Shown here: positions 5,411 through 39,032 of the stretch, piece by piece
Layout: every line of letters begins with the position of its first letter
Numbering within the stretch: the first letter of the stretch is position 1
Source of the DNA: a virus
Direction: 5' to 3' (one strand)
DNA: 64,000 bases
Virus record (IMG/VR): IMGVR_UViG_3300025424_000009
Program-made: the position numbers and the translations under genes
The notes under the pieces: generated by a model
What the model saw: the letters and a program-made list of their open reading frames with translations, nothing else
Databases searched by the model: none
What the model was told of the DNA's origin: nothing

Positions 5411-8400
5411 ATGAGCAATAAAGCTTTATTTGCACAATTAAAACAAAAGTTTACCACTGACACTGTAATCAAAAGGGCAGGAGGTAAGTATTTAAAAGTA
5501 TCCGATTTTAATGGAATACAAGCCTTTGGTAATCTTCAGCAAAATACACTAGCTAATAGATATACAAGATTATACTCAAATAATGCTTTAGTTCAACCTG
5601 GAATAGGTTATGGAATGCAAGCAACTAGAGCTCAATTATATATGGACTACGAAGCTATGGATTTAGATGCATTAGTAGGTCCTGCTTTAGATATATTATG
5701 TGAAGAGGCTACTCAGGTGAATGAAATGAATAATGAGGTATTATCTATAAGATCATCTTCTGAGAATATTCAAGACGAATTATACAACCTATTCTACAAT
5801 GTTTTGAACATAGAATTCAATCTACCAATGTGGATAAGAGGAATGACAAAATTTGGAGATTTTTTTCTTCTATTACGTTTATCTGACCAGTTTGGAGTAT
5901 ATGGAGCCAGACCCTTATCTGTTTATGAAATAACCAGAGAAGAAGGGTTAGATGCTAATAACGGAGATTACATTAGATTTATACAAGACCCAGGAGCTAT
6001 TACAGGTGGTGTAAGTTCTATAGGTCAATCAAGGAACCATAGAGTATATGAAAACTATGAAGTAGCTCATTTTAGATTAATAAAAGATGCTAGTTTCCTT
6101 CCTTATGGAAAATGTTTAAAAGGTAATTCTTATATAGAAACTGAGTTTGGAGTAAAAACTATTGATAAAATAGAAGAAGGAGATAAAGTCTGGTCTTATA
6201 ATGTAGATAGTGATAGTTATGAGTTAACTACAGTATTAAAGCAAATATGTTCAGGGGAGAAAGAAATATTTAAAGTGTCTACTAAAAACAATTTTATAGA
6301 AGGTAGTGCAGAACACCCTGTACTTGTATTTTCAGAAGGAGAATTGAAATATAAGCAAATCCAAGATCTTAGTATAAAAGATTTATTAGCTATTACGGAT
6401 TATCAATTTAAACAAGTTAATCCTGACAGTAAGTTAAATAAAGATGTATCTAAAGAGAATAAGAAAAATGGTTGGCAAAAAGGATTGGAGTTTATTCCAG
6501 AAGTATATGAAGAAGATTTTGCAAGATTATTTGGATTTTTATTAGGAGATGGTTGGACTTCAAAAGCATGTGTTGCTTTTGCACAAGGGGTACATGATGA
6601 TAATAATCAAAAATATAAAGATTTACTACAAAAGTATTCTGGTAAAGTTTGCGGAGAGCATAATAGGAAGATAACAAATACAAATATAGCTTCACAAGCT
6701 TATAGTCATTCTAAAGCTCTTAAAGTAGTGCTTATAAACAATGGGTTTGTAGGTAAAGCAAAAACTAAAAGATTTCCTTCTTGGATATACGAACAACCTG
6801 AAAATGTACAACTAGCTTTTATAGAAGGGTTAGTAGATGCAGACGGAGCTATATTTACTGATAGATGGAATTGTAATAGATATACAGTAGAATTAGCTAA
6901 TAAAGAAATGTTAGGAGATTTAAAAGTTTTATTGCAAAGGTTAAAGATAAAATCAGGTAAAATACAAAAAAGAAAACCAAGGACTACTGTAGTATTTGGT
7001 GATAAAATTTATGATAAAAATGAGTCATACATTCTAACATTTTATACAGATGGTAAAAAGGTAGCTCAAGCTAAAAAACATAAACAAGAGGGTATTCAAA
7101 ATGTCATTTTAGAGCCTATTGTAGCAATTGAGCAGTCTGGTAAGGATTTAACTTATGATATATACGTAGAGTCTGAAAATCACAATTTTATTGCTAATGG
7201 AATAATTGTACATAACTCTTACCTCGAAAACGGGCGTAAATTATTTAAGGCTTACACTATGATGGAGGATGCTGCGGTAACACATCGTGTAACTAAATCT
7301 GCTGAAAAAAGAATTTTTTATTACAATGTAGGAAATCTACCACCTAATGAGGTAGATGCAATGATGCAAAAACATATATCTAGTCAGAAGAGGAGTCCTT
7401 TATTTGATCATAAAACAGGTCAGTTTGATTACAAGTTTAATATAATGAACTTGATGGAAGATTTTCACATCCCTGTCAGAAATGGTGATAATCTTACCCG
7501 TATTGAAACAGCAAAAGGGCTGGAGTATACAGGTATGGATGATATGAATTATTTCATAAATAAAATGTTTTCTGCCCTTAAAATACCTAAGGCATACCTT
7601 AATTATTCAGATGAATTGAATGGTAAGTGCCTACATCCAGACACTAAAATACCTTTGCTTAATGGTACTGAAAAAACTATAAAGGAAATATCTGATTTAT
7701 TTGAGACAGAAGAAAATGTTAATCTTTGGGTATATTCATATGACAAGGAGACTAATTCAATTATACCAGGTAAAGTAGTTAAAGCAGAAAAAACAAGACG
7801 TGATGCTAAACTAGTAAAGGTTACTCTAGATAATGGAGAAAGCTTAATAACAACCCCAGACCACGGTTTTGTCAGAAGAGGGGGAGAAAGAGTAGAAGCT
7901 CAAGAGTTGAAAGAAGGAGATTCTTTACAAGCAGTTTATAGGAAATTTGAAAAATTAAGAAATAATCAAAATGATTATGAACATGTTTACCAACCTAATT
8001 TAGATAAATGGGTTCTTACTCATAAAATGGTTGATGAGTACTTTAATGGTAAATTAGAGAAGAATGGATTTAATGATGAAGGTAAGTTTAAAAGAGATGA
8101 TTTAGTTGTAGTGCATCATAAAGATTTTAATAGATATAATAATCAACCTGATAACCTACAGAGATGTACTTATAGGGAACATTCAGCTATACATGTAGCT
8201 AATGCTGAAAAAGGTATTTGGTCTGATAAATCAAAAGAGAAATCTAAAGCTACTAAGCAAGGAGAGGAGTATAGAAAGAAAGCTTCTGAAATAGGTAAAG
8301 TTAATATGGCAAAACAGTGTGAAAAAGATCCTGAATCAAAGAATAGATTAAGAAATGCTTGGTTATCTTTATCATTTGAAGAAAAGAGTAAAATTGCAAT

Positions 8401-9766
8401 AGAAAAAGTAACTGAAAGTACAAGAGAAAAACTAAGAGCTACTGCAAATAGAACTTTAGAAAAGAGATTGCCTATAATGCAAGAAGCTCGGAGAAGGTGG
8501 GCAGAAGCTAATCCAGATTTTAATAGGGGTAGTAATAGTTATAGATGGATAGAAAGACCTTCAGTAGATTATATAAAGAGTTTTGTACAAAATTATGAAG
8601 GTGATAAATCTGAAATAAACGGGAGAGAAAAACTTGCTGAAAAATTAGGATTTGGTGAAAGGGTACTAAGAGAGATTCTTGCAAAGGAAGGTAGGGATAT
8701 TGTTGAATTTTTAAATGAATATATTGGATTTATAAAAGGTAGGAAGTTAAATATTAACAAAGATGCCTTGATAGAAAAATTACAAGGATATGAATCAGTT
8801 GAGGATTTTTGTAAACAATATAATTTTAAAACTAAATCAGTAAGAATATTAGAAAAAATATTAGGTGAACCTTTAGCAAATCATGTATGTAAAACTTATA
8901 ATCACAAGGTAGTATCAGTAGAGTTTTTAGATTATACTTCAGATACATATAATATGGAGGTTTATGATAAAAATGAAAATCATAACTTTCTTACAAGTGC
9001 TGGCGTTATAATAAAAAATTCCACGCTATCAGGTTTAAGTTTAAGTTGGTCTCGCCAGATTGAATATGTACAAAGAATGGCCATTGCACAGCTTCAAAAG
9101 ATAGCTCAAGTGCACCTTACCCTACTTGGATATGAAGATTCAGATTTAGCTAATTTTGATATAACACTTGCTAGACCTTCTATACTTCATGAGCAAGAAC
9201 GTATAGCATTATTGAAAGAAAAAGTAGACCTTGCCAACCAAATGCAAGAGAAAAATTTCATGTCAACTGATTGGGTATATGATAACATCTTCCAAATGAG
9301 TGAAGATCAAATAAACCGAGAAAGAGGTTTGATAGCTGAAGATGCTAAACGTAAATTTAGATACACTCAAATTGAACAAGAAGGTAATGACCCTTCTATA
9401 TCCGGAGTATCTTACGGTACACCACATGATTTAGCATCTATTTATAAAAATAATGCATCTGGACCTGAAGATGTACCTAGTGGTTATGATGAAAAGAAGG
9501 TAGTAGGCAGACCTGTTACACATCATTCTATATACAATACAGATAAATCCCCTGAAGGAAGAGATCCTTTAGGTAAAAAAGATATGAAGGATACATATAA
9601 AAAGGATAGTCTAAAACCTAATCCCCGTAAAGGTATGTATAATGAAGGATTAAGTAGAAAAGACTTAGATAAAATAAGACCAGGCAAGAAGATTAAACTG
9701 TACGAAGAGGTAGAAACTAAAGAACTCTCTATACTAGATGAAAGAAATTTATCAGAGAGTGAATAA
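5411..9766 (+). CDS. portal protein (T4 gp20-like) containing two inteins; 619 aa after splicing
   Basis: YEAMDLD, KFGDFFL, LPYG(K)/SYLE, MMEDA..HR..KSAEKRIFY.NVGNLPP, MEDFHIPVRNG, ALKIPKAYL motifs; position after terL. Confidence 0.92.
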   Translation: MSNKALFAQLKQKFTTDTVIKRAGGKYLKVSDFNGIQAFGNLQQNTLANRYTRLYSNNALVQPGIGYGMQATRAQLYMDYEAMDLDALVGPALDILCEEATQVNEMNNEVLSIRSSSENIQDELYNLFYNVLNIEFNLPMWIRGMTKFGDFFLLLRLSDQFGVYGARPLSVYEITREEGLDANNGDYIRFIQDPGAITGGVSSIGQSRNHRVYENYEVAHFRLIKDASFLPYGKCLKGNSYIETEFGVKTIDKIEEGDKVWSYNVDSDSYELTTVLKQICSGEKEIFKVSTKNNFIEGSAEHPVLVFSEGELKYKQIQDLSIKDLLAITDYQFKQVNPDSKLNKDVSKENKKNGWQKGLEFIPEVYEEDFARLFGFLLGDGWTSKACVAFAQGVHDDNNQKYKDLLQKYSGKVCGEHNRKITNTNIASQAYSHSKALKVVLINNGFVGKAKTKRFPSWIYEQPENVQLAFIEGLVDADGAIFTDRWNCNRYTVELANKEMLGDLKVLLQRLKIKSGKIQKRKPRTTVVFGDKIYDKNESYILTFYTDGKKVAQAKKHKQEGIQNVILEPIVAIEQSGKDLTYDIYVESENHNFIANGIIVHNSYLENGRKLFKAYTMMEDAAVTHRVTKSAEKRIFYYNVGNLPPNEVDAMMQKHISSQKRSPLFDHKTGQFDYKFNIMNLMEDFHIPVRNGDNLTRIETAKGLEYTGMDDMNYFINKMFSALKIPKAYLNYSDELNGKCLHPDTKIPLLNGTEKTIKEISDLFETEENVNLWVYSYDKETNSIIPGKVVKAEKTRRDAKLVKVTLDNGESLITTPDHGFVRRGGERVEAQELKEGDSLQAVYRKFEKLRNNQNDYEHVYQPNLDKWVLTHKMVDEYFNGKLEKNGFNDEGKFKRDDLVVVHHKDFNRYNNQPDNLQRCTYREHSAIHVANAEKGIWSDKSKEKSKATKQGEEYRKKASEIGKVNMAKQCEKDPESKNRLRNAWLSLSFEEKSKIAIEKVTESTREKLRATANRTLEKRLPIMQEARRRWAEANPDFNRGSNSYRWIERPSVDYIKSFVQNYEGDKSEINGREKLAEKLGFGERVLREILAKEGRDIVEFLNEYIGFIKGRKLNINKDALIEKLQGYESVEDFCKQYNFKTKSVRILEKILGEPLANHVCKTYNHKVVSVEFLDYTSDTYNMEVYDKNENHNFLTSAGVIIKNSTLSGLSLSWSRQIEYVQRMAIAQLQKIAQVHLTLLGYEDSDLANFDITLARPSILHEQERIALLKEKVDLANQMQEKNFMSTDWVYDNIFQMSEDQINRERGLIAEDAKRKFRYTQIEQEGNDPSISGVSYGTPHDLASIYKNNASGPEDVPSGYDEKKVVGRPVTHHSIYNTDKSPEGRDPLGKKDMKDTYKKDSLKPNPRKGMYNEGLSRKDLDKIRPGKKIKLYEEVETKELSILDERNLSESE
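6113..7216 (+). mobile_element. intein 1 in portal (368 aa) with LAGLIDADG homing endonuclease
   Basis: Starts CLKGNSYI, ends GIIVHN followed by Ser; FGFLLGDG and FIEGLVDADG motifs; removal restores LPYGK-SYLE. Confidence 0.92.
7628..9019 (+). mobile_element. intein 2 in portal (464 aa) with HNH endonuclease
   Basis: Starts CLHPDTKI, block B ITTPDHGF, ends GVIIKN followed by Ser; VHHKDFNRYNNQPDNL HNH motif; removal restores LNGK-STLS. Confidence 0.9.
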
Positions 9767-11094: not shown

Positions 11095-11706
11095 ATGAAT
11101 CTCAATACAAGATATCAACAAGTAAAGGCCGGAGAGTTTTCAAAAGTAGATTTCTTAAAAGAAGCTAAGGAAGATACTCGTGTTAATAAGATTTTTTCAC
11201 ACCTTAACTCGTATGAAGAGGTAATAAACATCTTTAAAGAAAAGGGTTATATTACTGAAGTTAATGACTTTACTCCTGAAAAAGAGTTTAATTTCATGTC
11301 TATATTAAAAGAGTCATTGAGTGATTTAGGCAACTTAGAAGATTTTTCTTATCAAGTACAACAAGTAAACCCTTTTGAGTATGAAAAAGGTTGGAGATAT
11401 GAAGCTAGAGGTAAAAATCTAAACGAAGATAATGTAGTTATGTCTGCCCAAAAGAAAGCTATAGCTAATTTAAAGAAAGATCCATTATTCTACACTAAAA
11501 TAGAAATGGGTAAGCATGCCCCATCTGAAAAGGAAATAGAAGCTAAAAAGCATATTGACATTTCAAAAGGTCAAAACTATGTTGACAAGAATAACCAGAT
11601 GAAACCTGTTAAGATGACCAAACCAGATGTTAAAGAAGATGCAGAAAGGGTTAAAATTGAAAAAATCAAGACAAAATTGCTTGAGGATTTAAAAAAAAAA
11701 GCTTAA
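11095..11706 (+). CDS. hypothetical head-module protein; N-terminal part of putative -1 frameshift fusion
   Basis: 203-aa ORF ending ...GAT TTA AAA AAA AAA GCT TAA. Confidence 0.75.
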   Translation: MNLNTRYQQVKAGEFSKVDFLKEAKEDTRVNKIFSHLNSYEEVINIFKEKGYITEVNDFTPEKEFNFMSILKESLSDLGNLEDFSYQVQQVNPFEYEKGWRYEARGKNLNEDNVVMSAQKKAIANLKKDPLFYTKIEMGKHAPSEKEIEAKKHIDISKGQNYVDKNNQMKPVKMTKPDVKEDAERVKIEKIKTKLLEDLKKKA

Positions 11707-14084
11707 CCGATAAGCAACTTAACGAAGGAACCTGGTCAAAGTTAAAGTATGCATCTGCCCAATTACATAAATTAAAACCTAATTCAAAAAAAGGATTAGA
11801 GTTACAAAAGTTTGTGCACCAGGAAGCAGACAAGCAAGTTAAAGATAAAATCTCCGAAATAGAAGATGAGATAAATAAAATAAGTCCTGAATTCCCTAAT
11901 GAGGAGTCAAACGAAGATTTTTTAAAATGTGTATTTGTAATTGCCGGTGCCTATGACTCTGTAGTAGCTGCCACTAAGCTTGATGTTTCTGATAAAAACT
12001 ACATAGACCCCCTATTAGCTAATAAGATAATAGATGGATTAAAAAAATACACTACAATTATAAAAGATCATGACCTAGCAAGTACCTATAAAGTATTCAA
12101 AGAGTCTTTAAATGAGAATGTACAAGTACTGCCAGGAGAGGGTATAACTCAAGTTTTACAAAAAATGACAGGTATTAAGCTTGGTGCAAGCCAAAGTGTA
12201 GATAACCTAAAGGCTGCTGTTGAAAAAGTAGGTAATGGTGATTACGAAAAAGGTCTTGAAGTAACTAAAAAGCTATTTACAAACAACGGTGCAGGATCTA
12301 TAGACCAACAAGCAGATAAATTAAACGATGTTATTCAGCATGGGGGTAAGCTAGGGGATGCCTTTACTAAGGCTCAAGGAACATTCGGTAATAAAGGATT
12401 ATTCTCAGTTAAATTGCCACCGGCCACTACAGAAAAAATTGTAAATACAGTAGCAAAAATAGCTAATAAAGCTTCACAAGCAACAAGCCATTTAGATACT
12501 GTAAAGCATGCTGGAAATACAATAAAACATGCTGCTGCCTCTATTGATTTTAATTATGCTCCGTATATAGCAGCAGCAGGAGTTATAATAGGTACTGGAA
12601 TAGTTGTTGGAGCTGCTATAAAATATGCAAAATCTATAAAACCAACTGAATCTAGGTTAAAGACTTTACAAGGGTTAGAAGATAGATTACAACTAGTAGC
12701 AGAACCAGAGGATATATCTAAACCAATAGAGTTAAATCCTAAAGTGACTAATACTAAGACTAAAGAAACTGAAAAATCAGGAGTAACTGTGACTCCTCAA
12801 AACAATGAGCCTAAAAATGTAGCAACACCAACAGAAATAGAACCTACATCAGCAGATACCAAAGAAAAGAAGCCTGAAGTTAAAACAAAAGAAAAGGTTG
12901 ATAATAAAAAGGCTTCCAAAGAAGATGAAGATAAAACTGGCAATACTACGAAAAAAGAATCAGAACTTACTAAAACTGTCAGAAAAGTATCTGGAGAAGA
13001 AGAAAAGAAAAAACCTGAAATTAAAACAAAGAAGAAGGAGAGTAATAAGGAGACTACTAAAGAAGATGAAAAAGCAATAGCAAAAGAAGATGAATTAGAA
13101 TATGCCATCCCTCATAAGTATGATGTAAAATACCTAAAAGATAAAGAAGGAGTTGCTACAATAACCTTAACAGATTTAAAATATACCCCCGAATCTAAGA
13201 AACTTAAAAAGAAAGATATAGTAGTTGTAGTAGACCCTTTACTTAAAAAATATTATGAACGTCAAGCAAAAGAAAAAGGAGGATCTTTATATTCTGCATT
13301 AAATGACCTTTATAACAGACAATCTTCTGAAAAAAGAAAATTAATTATTGATTTATCGAAAGAACCTACTCAAGAAAAACTACAAAAGAAAGCTTTACAA
13401 ATATCCAAAGCATCTAAATTATCTGATGAGCAAATAAAAGAAGCTTTTAAAGCTAAATTATTGGAAGACTTATATACACCTTCATTAAGATTATTTATAC
13501 CAGATCCTAAAGGTAGACTAGTTGATAAAGATGATTTAGAAAGAGAATTAAGAAGTAACACCCCTGCTGACAATCAAAATTATGATAACGGTTCTAATGT
13601 ATACACAAATAAAATAGATTCAGAAAGACTAGTAAAAATTGACACCCTTATATCACAAATGGGAGAGCCTGGAGTGGCTATGTATAACAAATATGCTAAA
13701 GCATACGGAGCTGAACCTTATGATGGGAGAGCTAAAGTATTCAATCCAGTACAAGTACCGGCAGATGACAGAACTTACATAGACGGTAACGGAGACGTAG
13801 AGCCTGTGAAAAATAAAACAAAAGAGGTCTTTGAATCTCAAAAACCAAACTTTGTACCTGAAGCACAGAATTTCCTTCAAACATTGAACGATATTTATAG
13901 AAGGTGCATTCCTAAAACAGGTATTAAACCCTTCATAGAACATTTAGATAATTTAGATATGAAGGATCAAGAACCTAAATTAGCAATGGCCTACATAAAT
14001 CATAAACTAAAGGATACTAAGTGTGAATATAAAGAAGAATTGCAAAAAGCACTAGATAAAATAAAAGCTAAATACAAATCATAG
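11685..14084 (+). CDS. large hypothetical protein (possible internal/ejection protein); -1 frame partner of 11095..11706
   Basis: ORF-track start is GTG 11814, but the frame is open from 11685 (FKKKSLTDKQLNEGTWSKLKY...); hydrophobic segment APYIAAAGVIIGTGIVVGAAI; K/E/T low-complexity linker. Confidence 0.7.
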   Translation, partial: GFKKKSLTDKQLNEGTWSKLKYASAQLHKLKPNSKKGLELQKFVHQEADKQVKDKISEIEDEINKISPEFPNEESNEDFLKCVFVIAGAYDSVVAATKLDVSDKNYIDPLLANKIIDGLKKYTTIIKDHDLASTYKVFKESLNENVQVLPGEGITQVLQKMTGIKLGASQSVDNLKAAVEKVGNGDYEKGLEVTKKLFTNNGAGSIDQQADKLNDVIQHGGKLGDAFTKAQGTFGNKGLFSVKLPPATTEKIVNTVAKIANKASQATSHLDTVKHAGNTIKHAAASIDFNYAPYIAAAGVIIGTGIVVGAAIKYAKSIKPTESRLKTLQGLEDRLQLVAEPEDISKPIELNPKVTNTKTKETEKSGVTVTPQNNEPKNVATPTEIEPTSADTKEKKPEVKTKEKVDNKKASKEDEDKTGNTTKKESELTKTVRKVSGEEEKKKPEIKTKKKESNKETTKEDEKAIAKEDELEYAIPHKYDVKYLKDKEGVATITLTDLKYTPESKKLKKKDIVVVVDPLLKKYYERQAKEKGGSLYSALNDLYNRQSSEKRKLIIDLSKEPTQEKLQKKALQISKASKLSDEQIKEAFKAKLLEDLYTPSLRLFIPDPKGRLVDKDDLERELRSNTPADNQNYDNGSNVYTNKIDSERLVKIDTLISQMGEPGVAMYNKYAKAYGAEPYDGRAKVFNPVQVPADDRTYIDGNGDVEPVKNKTKEVFESQKPNFVPEAQNFLQTLNDIYRRCIPKTGIKPFIEHLDNLDMKDQEPKLAMAYINHKLKDTKCEYKEELQKALDKIKAKYKS
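11688..11715 (+). other. candidate -1 ribosomal frameshift signal (T TTA AAA, A10 run, hairpin)
   Basis: X XXY YYZ heptamer in frame; -1 frame open from 11685 to 14084; GCTTA-ACCGA-TAAGC hairpin 6 nt after the heptamer. Confidence 0.65.
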
Positions 14085-14085
14085 A

Positions 14086-14694
14086 ATGATACCATTAATA
14101 GAATATTTTCCAGTAATATTAACCGAAGCAGCTTCTTCATATACACCAGGTAAACCTCTTGTATTTAGGCATATATTACTTCAAAGAGCTAATTCAAAAA
14201 ATAGAAACGGACGTATATACCCTAAATCAGTACTAGAGCCTGTATTAGAGAGGTATAACGAGGAGTTCGTAAAGACCAGAAGAGCCCTCGGAGAATTGGA
14301 CCACCGATCGTCTATGATTGTGGAACTTAAAAATGTATCTCATTTAGTTACAGAAATGCACTGGGAAGGAGACGAAGTATATGGTGATATAGAAATATTA
14401 GATACCCCTTCTGGCAGAATATTAACAGAATTAGCAGTAAAGAAAATACCATTCGGAATCAGCTCCAGAGCCCAAGGTAGTGTAATGGAATCAGAAGATG
14501 CTATCATAGTTCAAAATGACTTAGAAATGATGTGTTTTGATACAGTATCTTTTGAATCAACACAAGGTTCCACTCTTGTTTTAAATGAAGGTTTAAATGC
14601 AATTAATAACAAGTATAACAAGATTGATAGTATATTATCGGACATAATATGTTCAAACACTAATTTCTGTCCTTGTAAATTAGATAAAAAATAA
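14086..14694 (+). CDS. prohead core protease (T4 gp21-like)
   Basis: NRNGRIYP, ALGELDH, GISSRAQGS, CFDTV..ES motifs; lies before scaffold and MCP. Confidence 0.9.
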   Translation: MIPLIEYFPVILTEAASSYTPGKPLVFRHILLQRANSKNRNGRIYPKSVLEPVLERYNEEFVKTRRALGELDHRSSMIVELKNVSHLVTEMHWEGDEVYGDIEILDTPSGRILTELAVKKIPFGISSRAQGSVMESEDAIIVQNDLEMMCFDTVSFESTQGSTLVLNEGLNAINNKYNKIDSILSDIICSNTNFCPCKLDKK

Positions 14695-14700
14695 TCCACG

Positions 14701-14748
14701 TATAATTTTCGTATATTTATTATTATAGGGGTATTCTTAATTACCCTT
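14701..14748 (+). promoter_or_regulatory. extended putative late promoter element plus hairpin (copy 2)
   Basis: TATAATTTTCGTATATTTATTATTATAGGGGTA followed by AGGGGTA/TACCCTT stem; upstream of scaffold-MCP. Confidence 0.65.
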
Positions 14749-14764
14749 TACACACCTTAATATT

Positions 14765-14829
14765 ATTACCTCCCATAGGTAATCAAGGTTAAAAACAAAA
14801 ACACATTATACCTCCTCCTAATAGGTATA
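14765..14829 (+). promoter_or_regulatory. two related hairpins in the scaffold/MCP leader
   Basis: ATTACCT-CCCAT-AGGTAAT (14765..14783) and TATACCT-CCTCCTAAT-AGGTATA (14807..14829). Confidence 0.5.
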
Positions 14830-14853
14830 CAAAATCAAAAACTAAAAAATTAA

Positions 14854-15963
14854 ATGAAAAAAAGCGTATTGGAAGAAGCTTTGGCAGATGCTAAAGAACT
14901 AAAAAGAATGGCAATCGAATCGGCTAAATTATCTCTTCACGAATCAATTACTCCTGAAATCGAGAAATTACTTTCTAAGCAATTAAATGAAGATTTAAAC
15001 GAAGAAGAAGAGTATGAAGATGAAGCTGCTAAACAAGAAGCTGGAAAGCCTAGCGTAATGGAGCAAATCTCTAGTCTTGGTCTTGATGAAACTACTTTAG
15101 CTGCAATTAAAAATGCATTAGGAGAAGGTTCAAACGAAGAAGAAGAACAAGATGAAGCTGCTGAAGGACAAGATGAAGTGGAAGAATCTTTTGATCTTGA
15201 TACTGCATTAGCTGAAATTGAATCAAAAGAAGCTGACGATAAAGAAGATGAAAAAGAAGAAATGGACGAATCATTAGACATTGATGCTATTTTAGCTGAA
15301 ATGGATTCTGAAGATGAATCTTATGAAGATTCAGAAGAAGATAATGAAGAAGATGCAAAGCATGAAGAAGATGAAGTAGACGAAGCCTTTGGTGATAAAG
15401 GTCCTGAAGCTGGTAAAACTGCTGAAAAAGGTAAAATAGTACATGCTGAACCAGACACTAAAGGATTTACAAAAGATTATATCGACATTCTTCACAAATT
15501 AGTTGACGACATGGCTAAAAGCTATGAAGCTGGCAAAGGTGCTGAAAAAGGTAAAGATATTAATACCGGTAAGGAAAATGAAACCAAAGGTAAAGGTACT
15601 GAAAAATTAGAAGAAGCAGCTCTAGCTAAACAATTAAAAGGTGAATTAAACGAATTGAAATTGTTTGCTGGTAAAAACATGTATTTAAATAAAGTATTGG
15701 TATTACCTAACTTAACTGAAGCTCAAAAAGCAAAAGCAATTACTGCATTTGATAAAGTTAAGACCCTTGATGGTGCAAAAACTACTTACGAAGTATTAAA
15801 AGCCTCAATCACTCCTACAAAAAGAAAACAATCAATCACAGAATCACTAGGATTTAGACAAAAAACTTCTGAAATTTTAATTGAGAGTGCTAAAAAATCA
15901 GAACCAATTCAATATTTACCAGAAGCTGTTGAATTCAAAAGAAGAGCTGGAATTAAAGATTAA
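14854..15963 (+). CDS. prohead scaffold protein (T4 gp22-like position)
   Basis: Highly acidic coiled-coil protein with many L-x-E motifs between protease and MCP. Confidence 0.8.
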   Translation: MKKSVLEEALADAKELKRMAIESAKLSLHESITPEIEKLLSKQLNEDLNEEEEYEDEAAKQEAGKPSVMEQISSLGLDETTLAAIKNALGEGSNEEEEQDEAAEGQDEVEESFDLDTALAEIESKEADDKEDEKEEMDESLDIDAILAEMDSEDESYEDSEEDNEEDAKHEEDEVDEAFGDKGPEAGKTAEKGKIVHAEPDTKGFTKDYIDILHKLVDDMAKSYEAGKGAEKGKDINTGKENETKGKGTEKLEEAALAKQLKGELNELKLFAGKNMYLNKVLVLPNLTEAQKAKAITAFDKVKTLDGAKTTYEVLKASITPTKRKQSITESLGFRQKTSEILIESAKKSEPIQYLPEAVEFKRRAGIKD

Positions 15964-15988
15964 TCAAAAACAAAAAAAATAAAACAAC

Positions 15989-17668
15989 ATGAGTACAATC
16001 TCACAATTATTAGAATCATCTAGGACTATGGAGGACAAAATGCAAGTCCTTACCAAGCTAGAACAAAAATGGGCACCTACAGGTCTATTAGACGGTAGTG
16101 CTTTGAAAGCTCATCCTTACGAAAAACGTAATATGGCTTTATTGCTTGAGAACCAAAACAAGCAAATCTTAGTAGAAGAACAAACTACCAATAAAGGTGG
16201 TGCAAACTTCATAGCAGGCTCTGGCGAACAATGGGCTGGTATCGTTTTACCAATGGTTCGTAAAGTATTCGCTGAAATTTCTGCTAAAGAATTCTTGAGT
16301 ACACAACCTATGAGCATGCCTTATGGTTTAGTGTTCTATCTAGATTTCCAATACAACAACCAACAACCTTATATAGGAGGTGGTGCAACTAGTAGATTTA
16401 ATGTAGGTGACAGTGTATATGGTACTACTAACACTCCTGGTGTTGACCCATTCGGTGGTTTGTATGGTGCTGGTAAATTCGGATATTCTATGAACGAATA
16501 TATAGCTATTGTACCTTCAGCTTCAATGACAGTAACAACTGCATCTTTAAGTGGTGCTGATACTAACTATAACGGTAATGTATCTGCATCTGCTGCTGCT
16601 TCTGGTTTACGTAAAGTAACTATCAACAGTGCTTCTGTAGTTATACCTAACCTTGATATAACTGCTGTAAGATCTTTCGTATTCACAGGTAGTGGAATCA
16701 GTGAAGGTGTTATCTATCCTGAATTTACTTCTTACAATAGTACATTTGACCAATTATCATTCATCGTTACAGGTAGTTTAACTACTGTTGCTGGTGGTGC
16801 TCCTAATGCAAATGTTACTACTTACTACTCAGTTCAAACTAGTGCTAACTTCCGTGGTGATTTTGAAGATAGTCCTTCAACTCCATTAACAGGTAGTAAC
16901 GCTATCTCTGAAATTGACATCGCTCCTTCAAGTAAAGGTATCACTGCTAAAACTCGTAAGTTAAAGTATAGCTACACACAAGAAGCTCAACAAGATTACA
17001 ACGCTTTCCAAAGCATTGATATCGAAGCAGAAGCTACAAGTATGTTAAGTGAATATATCTCTCGTGAAGTTGACTTAGAATTACTTGATTTAGTAAACCT
17101 AGCAGCAGCTCAAACTACAGAAGTATGGTCAGCAATCAACAACAAAACTTTTGATGCTACAACTAATACTTGGACTTTGAACAGTGCTACAACTGGATCT
17201 GGTTTCTACAACAGTCAACAAGATTGGTTCACCACTTTAGGTACTAAAATGCAAAGAGTATCTCGTGCAATCCATACCAAGACTCAAAGAGGTGAAGCTA
17301 ATGTTGCAATGGTATCTCCAAAAGTAGCTGCAATCATCGAGTCAATCGCTGGTTATGCTGCTGGAACTGATGGTTCTAAAATGGAGTATGCATTCGGTAG
17401 TAAAGAAAGCGGTAAATTGAATGGTAAATTCAAAATACTTGTTAACTCTTACATGCAAGAGAATACAATCATCATGGGCTTTAAGGGTTCTAATTACTTG
17501 GATAGTGGTGGTGTATTTGCACCTTACATTCCATTGATTTCTACACCTCTTGTGTTCGATCCAACTACATTCAAAATGTCTAAAGCTTTATCAACTCGTT
17601 ACGCTAAGTTGATAACTCGTCCGGAATTCTTCGGTAGAATTTATGTAGCTGACTTCAATAATTTCTAG
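15989..17668 (+). CDS. major capsid protein (T4 gp23-like)
   Basis: KWAPTGLL, LLENQ, LPMVRKVF, QPMSMP.GLVFYLDF, AKTRKLK, ISRE(V)D, GVFAPYIPL, TRYAK motifs. Confidence 0.95.
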   Translation: MSTISQLLESSRTMEDKMQVLTKLEQKWAPTGLLDGSALKAHPYEKRNMALLLENQNKQILVEEQTTNKGGANFIAGSGEQWAGIVLPMVRKVFAEISAKEFLSTQPMSMPYGLVFYLDFQYNNQQPYIGGGATSRFNVGDSVYGTTNTPGVDPFGGLYGAGKFGYSMNEYIAIVPSASMTVTTASLSGADTNYNGNVSASAAASGLRKVTINSASVVIPNLDITAVRSFVFTGSGISEGVIYPEFTSYNSTFDQLSFIVTGSLTTVAGGAPNANVTTYYSVQTSANFRGDFEDSPSTPLTGSNAISEIDIAPSSKGITAKTRKLKYSYTQEAQQDYNAFQSIDIEAEATSMLSEYISREVDLELLDLVNLAAAQTTEVWSAINNKTFDATTNTWTLNSATTGSGFYNSQQDWFTTLGTKMQRVSRAIHTKTQRGEANVAMVSPKVAAIIESIAGYAAGTDGSKMEYAFGSKESGKLNGKFKILVNSYMQENTIIMGFKGSNYLDSGGVFAPYIPLISTPLVFDPTTFKMSKALSTRYAKLITRPEFFGRIYVADFNNF

Positions 17669-17777: not shown

Positions 17778-18449
17778 ATGTCATCACTCCCTCACACTGA
17801 CGAAGTTTACAAACCAAAGAGAGTTTTAAAAAATCCAATAAAGTTTAAAATAGAGTTAACTGAAGAGCAAAAATTAGCAAAAGCATCTGTTTATGAAAAA
17901 GATATTACATTTATACTGGGGACATATGGCACAGGAAAAACGAATGTAGCGTGTAACATAGCCTTAGACATGCTTTTTAAGCGTCATAATGACATAGATA
18001 AGATTTATATAGCTAGACCTATAGATTTCTCAGCTACTGGTTATTTATCTGGAGATTTTTCACAAAAAGTAAAATTTCATATTATGCCTATCATGCAGAA
18101 TATGTATGCATCCTACGGTAAAGAAAAGATAGATAAGTATTTAGAAGATGGCACTATCGAAATATTACCTATCGACTATATGAAGGGAATGAACCAAATG
18201 AATAGTGTAACAATAATAGATGAGTTTGAAGATGTAAATTATAAAGACTTTAAGATGATCTTAACCAGGCTTTGTAAAGGTAGTAAACTTATTTTTACAG
18301 GTTCTGAAGAGCAAATAGATATTAAAGATAGTTGTATACCTTACATAAAGAAGTTAAAAGACTCTGGATTAGTAGGTTATCATGTACTTACTATTAACCA
18401 AAGAAATGAAGCTATTCAAAAAATAATTGATTTCATAGATACCCATTAG
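17778..18449 (+). CDS. phoH: PhoH-family ATPase
   Basis: GTYGTGKT Walker A, ARP, GYLSGD, YMKGMN, IIDEFED, LTRL..GSKLIFTGS.EQID. Confidence 0.88.
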   Translation: MSSLPHTDEVYKPKRVLKNPIKFKIELTEEQKLAKASVYEKDITFILGTYGTGKTNVACNIALDMLFKRHNDIDKIYIARPIDFSATGYLSGDFSQKVKFHIMPIMQNMYASYGKEKIDKYLEDGTIEILPIDYMKGMNQMNSVTIIDEFEDVNYKDFKMILTRLCKGSKLIFTGSEEQIDIKDSCIPYIKKLKDSGLVGYHVLTINQRNEAIQKIIDFIDTH

Positions 18450-38285: not shown

Positions 38286-39032
38286 TTGAAAAATAGAAAT
38301 CCCCTTAACCTCCTTACGGAGAAGATAGATTTACCTTCTAAAGGTAAGTTATACCCCCTAGACAGCCCCCTATCACAAGGGTTTGTTGAAATACTATACC
38401 CTACAGCTAAGGAAGAAGATATCCTTACTAACCCTAACTACATCAAAAATGATACTGCCATTGATAAGTTCATTGAGAGTATTATGGTAACAGACATAGA
38501 TATAAATGATTTGTGCCTATGTGACAAAGATGCTGTGATGGTTGCTGGAAGAATCCTAGGACTAGGATCGGACTATACAATCAGGGAGGGTTTATCTAAT
38601 CCTATCACTTTCAACCTGTCTGAATTGCAAGACAAAGAAGTAGATTGGAGCTTATTTGATAACACTAACGAATTTGAATATAATATTAAAGATGTTGTAA
38701 TCAAGTTCAAAGTACCTACTGGCCACGACATGATTGCCATGAAGAAAGAAGTAGAAGGACTAAAGAAAATAGATCCTAATGCCACTATCGATACTAGGAT
38801 TATCTACAAGTTCACTATAGTAGAGGTAAATGGTAAAAGAGACTTACCTACTATTAATGATTTCTGTAATAGAATACTAATGGTAGATTCAAAGAAACTA
38901 AAAGCTTATGTGGATTTAGTGACACCTGGATATACATGGAAGGGAACTGGTACCTACATTAAGGATAATAAACAAGAGAAAGTGGAGGGTCTCACTATAC
39001 CAGTAACTACTACATTTTTTTACCCTTCCTAA
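38286..39032 (+). CDS. tail assembly chaperone / baseplate hub assembly protein (T4 gp26-like)
   Basis: LPSKGKLYP, PTAKEEDILTN, DKDAVMVAGRILGLG motifs; upstream of tape measure. Confidence 0.75.
   Translation: MKNRNPLNLLTEKIDLPSKGKLYPLDSPLSQGFVEILYPTAKEEDILTNPNYIKNDTAIDKFIESIMVTDIDINDLCLCDKDAVMVAGRILGLGSDYTIREGLSNPITFNLSELQDKEVDWSLFDNTNEFEYNIKDVVIKFKVPTGHDMIAMKKEVEGLKKIDPNATIDTRIIYKFTIVEVNGKRDLPTINDFCNRILMVDSKKLKAYVDLVTPGYTWKGTGTYIKDNKQEKVEGLTIPVTTTFFYPS

Follow-up and report, generated by a model that had tools for sequence, protein, structure and literature searches.

Organization of the split gene

The window analysed here is a stretch of 64,000 nucleotides (nt) that forms part of the 147-kb IMG/VR virus record IMGVR_UViG_3300025424_000009, which is estimated to be 86% complete. 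In its head module, between the portal gene and a prohead protease gene, two long open reading frames (ORFs) in different frames meet at a run of ten A residues (A10). The features at this join, all on the + strand, are the following.

11095..11706, + strand: N-terminal domain ORF (P0001, 203 amino acids [aa]), the default (short) product, ending KKKA-stop
11677..11685, + strand: Leu-Leu-Glu just 5′ of the tract, a candidate L/I-x-E prohead-protease site (LLE or LHE in four lineages)
11685..14084, + strand: the -1 frame (P0002), 799 codons, giving the C-terminal 794 residues of the long product
11691..11700, + strand: A10 tract, the proposed slippage site; one A more (A11) unites the frames
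11701..11715, + strand: 5-bp hairpin GCTTA-ACCGA-TAAGC, not counted as a functional stimulator
11704..11706, + strand: TAA of the short product, one codon past the tract; the third frame closes too, after 3 or 4 codons
11718..11726, + strand: Leu-Asn-Glu, read in the -1 frame just 3′ of the tract and another candidate for cleavage (four lineages keep it as [LIV]NE-G)

The frame-0 ORF reads GAT TTA AAA AAA AAA GCT TAA at its 3′ end. The -1 frame is preceded by a TGA at 11682-11684 and is open from 11685 to the stop at 14082-14084. Its first start codon is the GTG at 11814, and 43 open codons lie ahead of it. A join after the third AAA yields a product of 996 aa that reads ...LLEDLKKKSLTDKQLNEG... 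across the junction. A preliminary description of this DNA had proposed a programmed -1 frameshift here, and everything that it stated about the sequence itself (the 3′ end of the ORF, the TGA, the open -1 frame with its startless codons and the length of the joined product) was confirmed.

The consequences of run length were simulated. With A8 or A11 the reading continues for about 800 more codons, whereas A9, A10 and A12 lead to a stop after 1-4 codons; with A9 or A12 the product of the window ends ...LNR-stop. The same pattern was repeated in seven relatives. In all the lineages considered here both non-productive frames stop after 1-22 codons, mostly 1-7. With A11 instead of A10 the window would read LKKKSLTDKQLNEG, that is L-K-K-K-S-L-T-D-K-Q-L-N-E-G, colinear with its relatives.

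The A10 at 11691-11700 is the single longest homopolymer of the 147-kb genome, and the join is the sole site in that genome where two long ORFs resemble one broken frame. Pervasive indel errors were considered as a source of the break and were rejected, since the genome has no other broken ORF pair.

One conserved gene in two frames

A search with the C-terminal part (C-part) retrieved P0004 (1021 aa), P0005 (1120 aa), P0006 (1139 aa), P0007 (1386 aa) and P0010 (1161 aa). In each of these the 203-aa N-terminal domain (N-domain) is found at the N-terminus and is followed by the C-part in a single ORF. P0001 aligned over all 203 residues with residues 1-203 of the single-ORF proteins P0004-P0007 at 53-75% identity. 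The -1 frame aligned end to end with the single-ORF relatives, including the 43 codons ahead of GTG 11814, so that these codons, which had been missed when the ORFs were listed, are conserved protein sequence. The presence of homologues with both halves in one ORF makes the join more than a matter of chance. As judged from these alignments, a single conserved head-module gene, some 1000 codons long, is made up of ORF 11095..11706 and the -1 frame 11685..14084. The earlier proposal that the two ORFs are one gene therefore holds, and they are joined exactly at the A run, through ...LKKKSLTDK..., as in the relatives.

The DNA of IMG/VR and JGI contigs was examined at the corresponding position. 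Both parts are in one frame in L002 (the same as L007), L003, L004, L006 and L008. The join in L002, L003, L004 and L008 consists of TTC or CTT followed by AAA AAA AAA AAT, an A11 in frame that encodes K-K-K-N. The run length is the sole difference between the window and these relatives at the join (A10 as against A11), which amounts to one A. The run lengths for P0007, P0135, P0011 and P0138 were inferred from protein tails only.

Neither half had a match among 50,697 phage records by megablast or tblastn, and metagenomes are the sole known source of the gene family. Scans of IMG/VR with the single proteins P0002 and P0011 were likewise without matches, and alignment-based scans did succeed. 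No fused protein at high identity to the window was on record in the C-part search. Gene callers report this gene as a protein of 203-206 aa and another of 728-756 aa (P0001 and P0003 in the window; P0139 and P0008 in a second lineage described below), and such pairs should be read as one gene in annotation.

The state of the relatives raises the question of a homopolymer miscall. In that case the true genome would carry A11 and one ordinary 996-aa gene, and the split would exist only in the assembly. The closest relatives carry A11 in frame, the tract is the very site in the genome with the longest homopolymer, and the frame downstream of the join is perfectly intact, all of which a miscall would explain. 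However, A11 was resolved without trouble in four other assemblies, the 147-kb genome has no further frame break, and the 203-aa ORF of the window is recorded on two contigs.

A second split clade and other run-length variants

The locus L009 (Ga0208255_100249), whose N-domain is 58% identical to that of the window, reads TTG AAA AAA AAA ATT at the join, an A10 with the same -1 offset. Its N-domain ORF, P0139, is recorded on four contigs. The C-part is annotated separately as P0008, and a one-residue variant, P0136, is present on another contig. A further N-domain protein, P0138, is 86% identical to P0139, and the out-of-frame tails of the two are homologous (KKKILAPNK-stop and KKKILAKSK-stop). 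Longer (fused) forms of P0139 were searched for and none was found closer than 64% identity. Since no closer fused form is seen in the P0139/P0138 clade, the split state looks heritable: it recurs here and is inherited within this second clade.

N-domain sequences were placed in a tree, which groups P0139 with P0138 in a supported clade and puts the window as sister to the fused group of P0005, P0006, L003 and L004. The window lineage and the P0139/P0138 clade thus stand apart, which indicates that the state has changed at least twice while the tract was kept. An A10 split of the same kind, found on four contigs for L009 and again in a relative with 86% identity, in a clade for which no fused form is recorded, argues against a miscall. 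Taken with the points given above, a miscall in the window is considered unlikely, although it has to be kept in mind.

Length differences of another kind also occur in the family. P0011 (202 aa, ending KKKV, split) is identical over 201 residues to the N-domain of the fused P0135 (1048 aa). Its KKKV-stop tail fits the insertion of one A into AAA AAA AAG TCT AG., by analogy with L011, a change that runs opposite in direction to the split of the window. This pair indicates that length calls vary at the site, a point in favour of a miscall.

A real deletion of one base that is not rescued was considered as well. The gene would then be split or dying, with the N-domain made alone and the C-part made from GTG 11814 or not at all. 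The frames are truly offset, a GTG is available at 11814, and in both split lineages the C-part has an annotation of its own from the gene callers (P0003 and P0008), as such a deletion would predict. Against it, about 800 codons remain open in two independent lineages; in L009, as in the window, the C-part is intact over roughly that length, and the C-part is kept in all relatives. The first start codon in the C-part frame sits at no conserved position. Between the join and that codon lie 43 conserved codons in the window and 105 in L009, all of which would be lost. These startless stretches can be translated only by entry from the upstream frame. The split has also persisted over 14% protein divergence between P0139 and P0138, a comparison made on the N-domain ORFs, the C-part of P0138 not having been seen. 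An unrescued deletion is therefore very unlikely.

Proposed frameshift signals at the join

The preliminary description had favoured classical programmed -1 ribosomal frameshifting on the heptamer T_TTA_AAA, and in the form considered here the GCTTA/TAAGC hairpin acts as stimulator and an upstream GAGGA as a Shine-Dalgarno-like enhancer. The heptamer does fit X_XXY_YYZ in frame 0, and the hairpin exists at 11701-11715, beginning 6 nt past the heptamer, with a stem of 5 bp only. The window has both T_TTA_AAA and A_AAA_AAA in the zero frame, but L009 shares only A_AAA_AAA and has C_TTG_AAA in place of the other heptamer. The 70 nt downstream of the run have a minimum free energy of -6.8 kcal/mol, where shuffled sequences average -8.4 (z = +0.64), and so fold no better than these, and the GCTTA/TAAGC pairing is not conserved in L009, L003, L004 or L008. 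A conserved downstream stimulator or upstream GAGGA common to the two split lineages was searched for, and neither was found. Hairpin, T_TTA_AAA and GAGGA are all missing from L009, and the A run alone is common to both split lineages.

The frame offset itself is not conserved. L002, L003, L004, L006, L008 and P0004-P0007 are in frame, and the offset is found, apart from the window, only in L009/P0139 and P0138; a majority of relatives in frame is not what classical frameshifting would lead one to expect. Shine-Dalgarno pairing is little used in Bacteroidota, which is a further point against a GAGGA enhancer if the host belongs to that phylum, as the nearest phages suggest. Classical -1 frameshifting of this kind is thus regarded as highly improbable. 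Recoding at the join is likely to be signalled by the poly-A tract and not by the heptamer and hairpin. Slippage on the A run, which had been named earlier only as an alternative mechanism, is the one best supported.

It had also been stated that orthologues with one continuous ORF would speak against recoding at this site. Of the two marks looked for in orthologues, the A tract is kept and the offset is not, since L002, L003, L004 and L008 have A11 and one continuous ORF, the state of most relatives. This is not decisive, because the tract is conserved and because there is an independent A10-split clade whose members differ by 14% in protein.

Other structures were seen downstream of the tract. 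A 10-bp hairpin (GAAGGUGCUU...AAGCACUUUC) is present at L003:4045-4077 (fused) and L009:3639-3670 (split), about 22-25 nt past the A tract, and is absent from the window and L008. The downstream region of L003 folded better than its shuffles did, with z = -2.3, and that of L008, which has a different stable fold, gave z = -2.7.

Conservation of the poly-A tract

A codon alignment was made from four independent lineages with about 50-56% protein identity, in which the fraction of identical codons at conserved residues is about 0.55. At the join, every lineage has AAA for each of the three Lys codons; elsewhere in this alignment, 13 of the 45 further conserved Lys columns (29%) are AAA throughout. 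The tract is the sole homopolymer of at least 8 in each of L002, L003, L004, L008 and L009, the loci being 7-19 kb each. Lys-Lys-Lys windows in the ORFs of the genome are encoded by AAAAAAAAA in 1 of 19 cases, that of the join tract, whereas 5.2 would be expected from codon usage. The corresponding counts in the loci of the relatives were too small to strengthen this test.

Among more distant relatives, L011, L017 and L018 have an in-frame A9 or A10 at or near the corresponding domain boundary, and L006/L016 and L019/L020 are without such an A run there. The tract thus appears to be kept beyond the expectation from codon usage, at moderate significance given that the lineages are related.

Proposed slippage at the poly-A tract

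These results suggest, as the probable though not the certain explanation, that A10 is a real poly-A slippage site, transcriptional or ribosomal, from which the 203-aa N-domain and a minor full-length product are made. Plain decoding of A10 would give only the 203-aa N-domain, the default product. The 996-aa protein would be made in those cases, a fraction of the whole, in which expression proceeds as if the run had one A more. The likeliest cause would be the addition of one A by RNA polymerase during transcription of the tract; as an alternative, the ribosome could slip -1 on A_AAA_AAA. We infer that slippage occurs, that it is mainly transcriptional and that the short form has a use. In the A11 relatives the long form would be made by default, and the same slippage would yield truncated products consisting of the N-domain only, because both other frames stop within a few codons.

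The class of poly-A/T slippage sites to which Thermus dnaX, Citrobacter tssM1 and Shigella mxiE/spa13 belong is marked by a run of at least about 9 at the join, by a one-base change that unites conserved parts and by a tract that is kept; all three features are seen at this locus. Base addition by bacterial RNA polymerase is known from runs of 9 A or T (PMC5009743), and ribosomal sliding on poly-A has also been reported (PMC4363877).

Several points weigh against slippage at a genuine A10. Both the run length in the DNA and the slippage rest on assembled sequence and not on direct observation. The nearest relatives have A11 in frame, and a miscall would fall precisely at the longest homopolymer of a genome. 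It may also be that the contigs with P0001 or P0139, several as they are, were assembled more than once from a single set of reads. Sporadic length differences at the site, by error or by mutation, do occur, as the P0011/P0135 pair shows. The statistics of tract conservation are moderate, about 0.02-0.03 per test, and come from related lineages. Lastly, tolerance of both A10 and A11 would be awkward if the ratio of short to long product mattered.

Comparison with known systems

The closest parallel to slippage at the A10 tract is tssM1 of Citrobacter rodentium, where about 20% of the products are brought back into frame through transcriptional slippage on a tract of A11, and neither form is dispensable (PMC4256274). 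In tssM1, and also in tssM of Yersinia pseudotuberculosis, the DNA is interrupted, as in the window, at a poly-A that encodes Lys-Lys-Lys. An N-terminal fragment is the default product, the full-length protein is made in the minority by slippage, and uninterrupted homologues exist elsewhere. The tract of tssM1 is A11 and that of the window A10, so that the bases added or lost to restore the frame need not match. tssM1 differs in being a bacterial secretion-system gene for which slippage has been shown experimentally, by AAG substitution and by mass spectrometry of complementary DNA, whereas the phage gene is known from metagenomes alone.

The A11 relatives resemble Thermus thermophilus dnaX, in which tau is the long product in frame and slippage on the in-frame gene gives rise to gamma, both other frames being closed by stops (PMC5009743); slipped transcripts there give truncated products with the same N-terminus. 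In dnaX, however, the in-frame state is fixed and the ratio of the products is about 1:1, whereas the related phages considered here vary in the frame of their DNA.

A poly-A frameshift has been confirmed in a phage gene, the methyltransferase gene CPt10_0091 of the Campylobacter T4-like phage CPt10, and rescue by slippage was suggested by its authors (PMC2853527). This gene is like the split gene in belonging to a T4-like phage, in its poly-A frameshift and in the transcriptional slippage suggested for it. It differs in that it is an accessory gene of a single phage with no cross-lineage conserved tract reported, and in that rescue is only suggested.

The tail chaperone G/GT of phage lambda and the capsid proteins 10A/10B of T7 share with the split gene two products with a common N-terminus, a minor longer form and a place in a virion-assembly module. 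Those systems have a conserved heptamer and a fixed offset in all relatives and concern tail-chaperone or capsid genes. The window and its relatives have a homopolymer as their common signal and differ among themselves in the offset, and their gene occupies the interval from portal to protease. The class of poly-A slippage sites is known, and the gene context, a phage head module, would be new to it.

Gene context and protein features

The genes are ordered large terminase, portal (1451 aa), a 281-aa and a 145-aa protein, the split gene, Peptidase_S77 protease, a 369-aa protein, major capsid protein and PhoH, after which come the tail sheath and other tail genes. The same order of the head module is found in Flavobacterium phage immuto, L008 and L009. 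The major capsid protein is 45% identical to that of immuto, and Microcystis phage Mel-JY01 and Rhodothermus phage RM378 are more distant. In the equivalent slot immuto has a 360-aa protein whose first 55 residues are shared with the protein of the split gene. The phage is accordingly an uncultured far-T4-like myovirus, and its host is probably a freshwater member of the Bacteroidota.

Other features of the long product and its surroundings, also on the + strand, are as follows.

12558..12620, + strand: hydrophobic transmembrane-like segment, in the long product only
13458..13466, + strand: second K-x-K-LLE-D-L motif, a candidate protease site 5′ of the conserved C-terminal domain, kept as LLED or LLEY
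14086..14694, + strand: prohead serine protease Peptidase_S77 (T4 gp21 family), directly downstream (PF03420, 3.9e-23; phrog_207)

The hydrophobic segment at 12558-12620 had been noted earlier as a property of the long form only, and this was borne out. In the joined protein it spans residues 489-509; no 19-mer of the C-part is more hydrophobic than the one within it (mean Kyte-Doolittle 2.1), and the aligned segment (alignment columns about 520-545) is hydrophobic in all relatives. Searches of PHROG and Pfam with both halves gave no significant family, the only hit being phrog_3165 (unknown function) at E = 0.0018.

The family of the N-domain is a wide one, with 126 representative hits, which lie mostly at the N-terminus of proteins of 400-1370 aa. 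The AlphaFold model of the N-domain is all-helical, with a mean predicted local distance difference test score (pLDDT) of 76. It gave no match in the PDB by Foldseek or VIA-align (best Z 4.7), and in BFVD it matched uncharacterized phage proteins only. The model of the C-part is poor (pLDDT 52) and unsuited to structure search. P0001 had no match in Pfam at E <= 0.1, and the DUF5661 model (PF18905) was accordingly among those not matched; that domain lies within the aligned region in the distant homologues P0043 and P0045 and elsewhere in the protein in P0010 and P0016. A link between P0001 and DUF5661 would be remote at best.

The middle of the protein family is highly variable, of low complexity and rich in Lys, Glu, Pro and Thr. 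The fused relative P0007 has E3-binding (PF02817) repeats at residues ~750-800 in this variable middle, and an extra insertion of about 190 aa (residues ~1120-1310) inside the conserved C-terminal domain.

In T4, gp21 cleaves its substrates by the rule L/I-x-E. The long product has conserved L-x-E motifs at residues 195-197 (LLE) and 209-211 (LNE), which flank the Lys linker, and at 789-791 (LLE), the motif being a short one. The S77 protease and the scaffold-like and capsid proteins (14086-17668) begin MIPLIE..., MKKSVLEE... and MSTISQLLE..., short N-terminal peptides that end in (L/I)xE; such a start of the capsid and scaffold proteins is a T4-like feature of this phage. The L-x-E motifs of the split-gene product would fit the T4 rule as putative cleavage sites. 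The two that flank the tract may be protease sites, and if so cleavage there would free from the long form the same N-domain that plain decoding of A10 gives. Should the motifs serve in this way, such release could account for the tolerance of either run length.

Its place beside the S77 protease makes it plausible that the protein belongs to the prohead core or to the internal proteins. It shares with the T4 core and internal proteins (gp67, gp68, IPI-III and Alt, processed by gp21) the slot between the portal and the S77 protease and L/I-x-E at domain boundaries. It differs from them in that the searches by sequence and by fold brought out no T4 protein as similar, and in that its cleavage is presumed.

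Some neighbouring genes were also looked at. In the portal ORF (5411-9766, 1451 aa) the matches to phrog_213, a portal family, break off where HNH-endonuclease-like stretches intervene, at about residues 840-980; the portal of immuto has only 617 aa, and that of the window fits intein-type insertions. The PhoH-like gene (17778-18449) directly follows the capsid gene, and in immuto PhoH lies shortly downstream of the capsid gene, a shared synteny marker. The ORF list of the window also includes a 248-aa ORF at 38286..39032.

Significance of the tract

A further proposal, decidedly unlikely as it stands, is that the tract is a selected and heritable dosage switch in a head gene of a lytic phage. 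An abundant N-domain, acting as a core or targeting module, would be made together with a rarer fusion of N-domain plus cargo, which would bring the membrane-active C-part into the capsid in the manner of Gag and Gag-Pol. Replication slippage between A10 and A11 would flip the major form, so that the cargo load of the virion could be retuned in a way that resembles phase variation.

If the A10 of the window is a miscall instead, the value of the present analysis lies in a corrected annotation only. If slippage on the poly-A tract does take place, it would place recoding by homopolymer slippage in a gene for phage head assembly, apart from the well-known tail-chaperone and capsid sites. The unusual point would be that one conserved tract is in frame in some sister lineages and out of frame in others. 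Such slippage would also give an example, open to testing, of how uncultured freshwater far-T4-like phages set the amounts of short and long forms of a virion protein.

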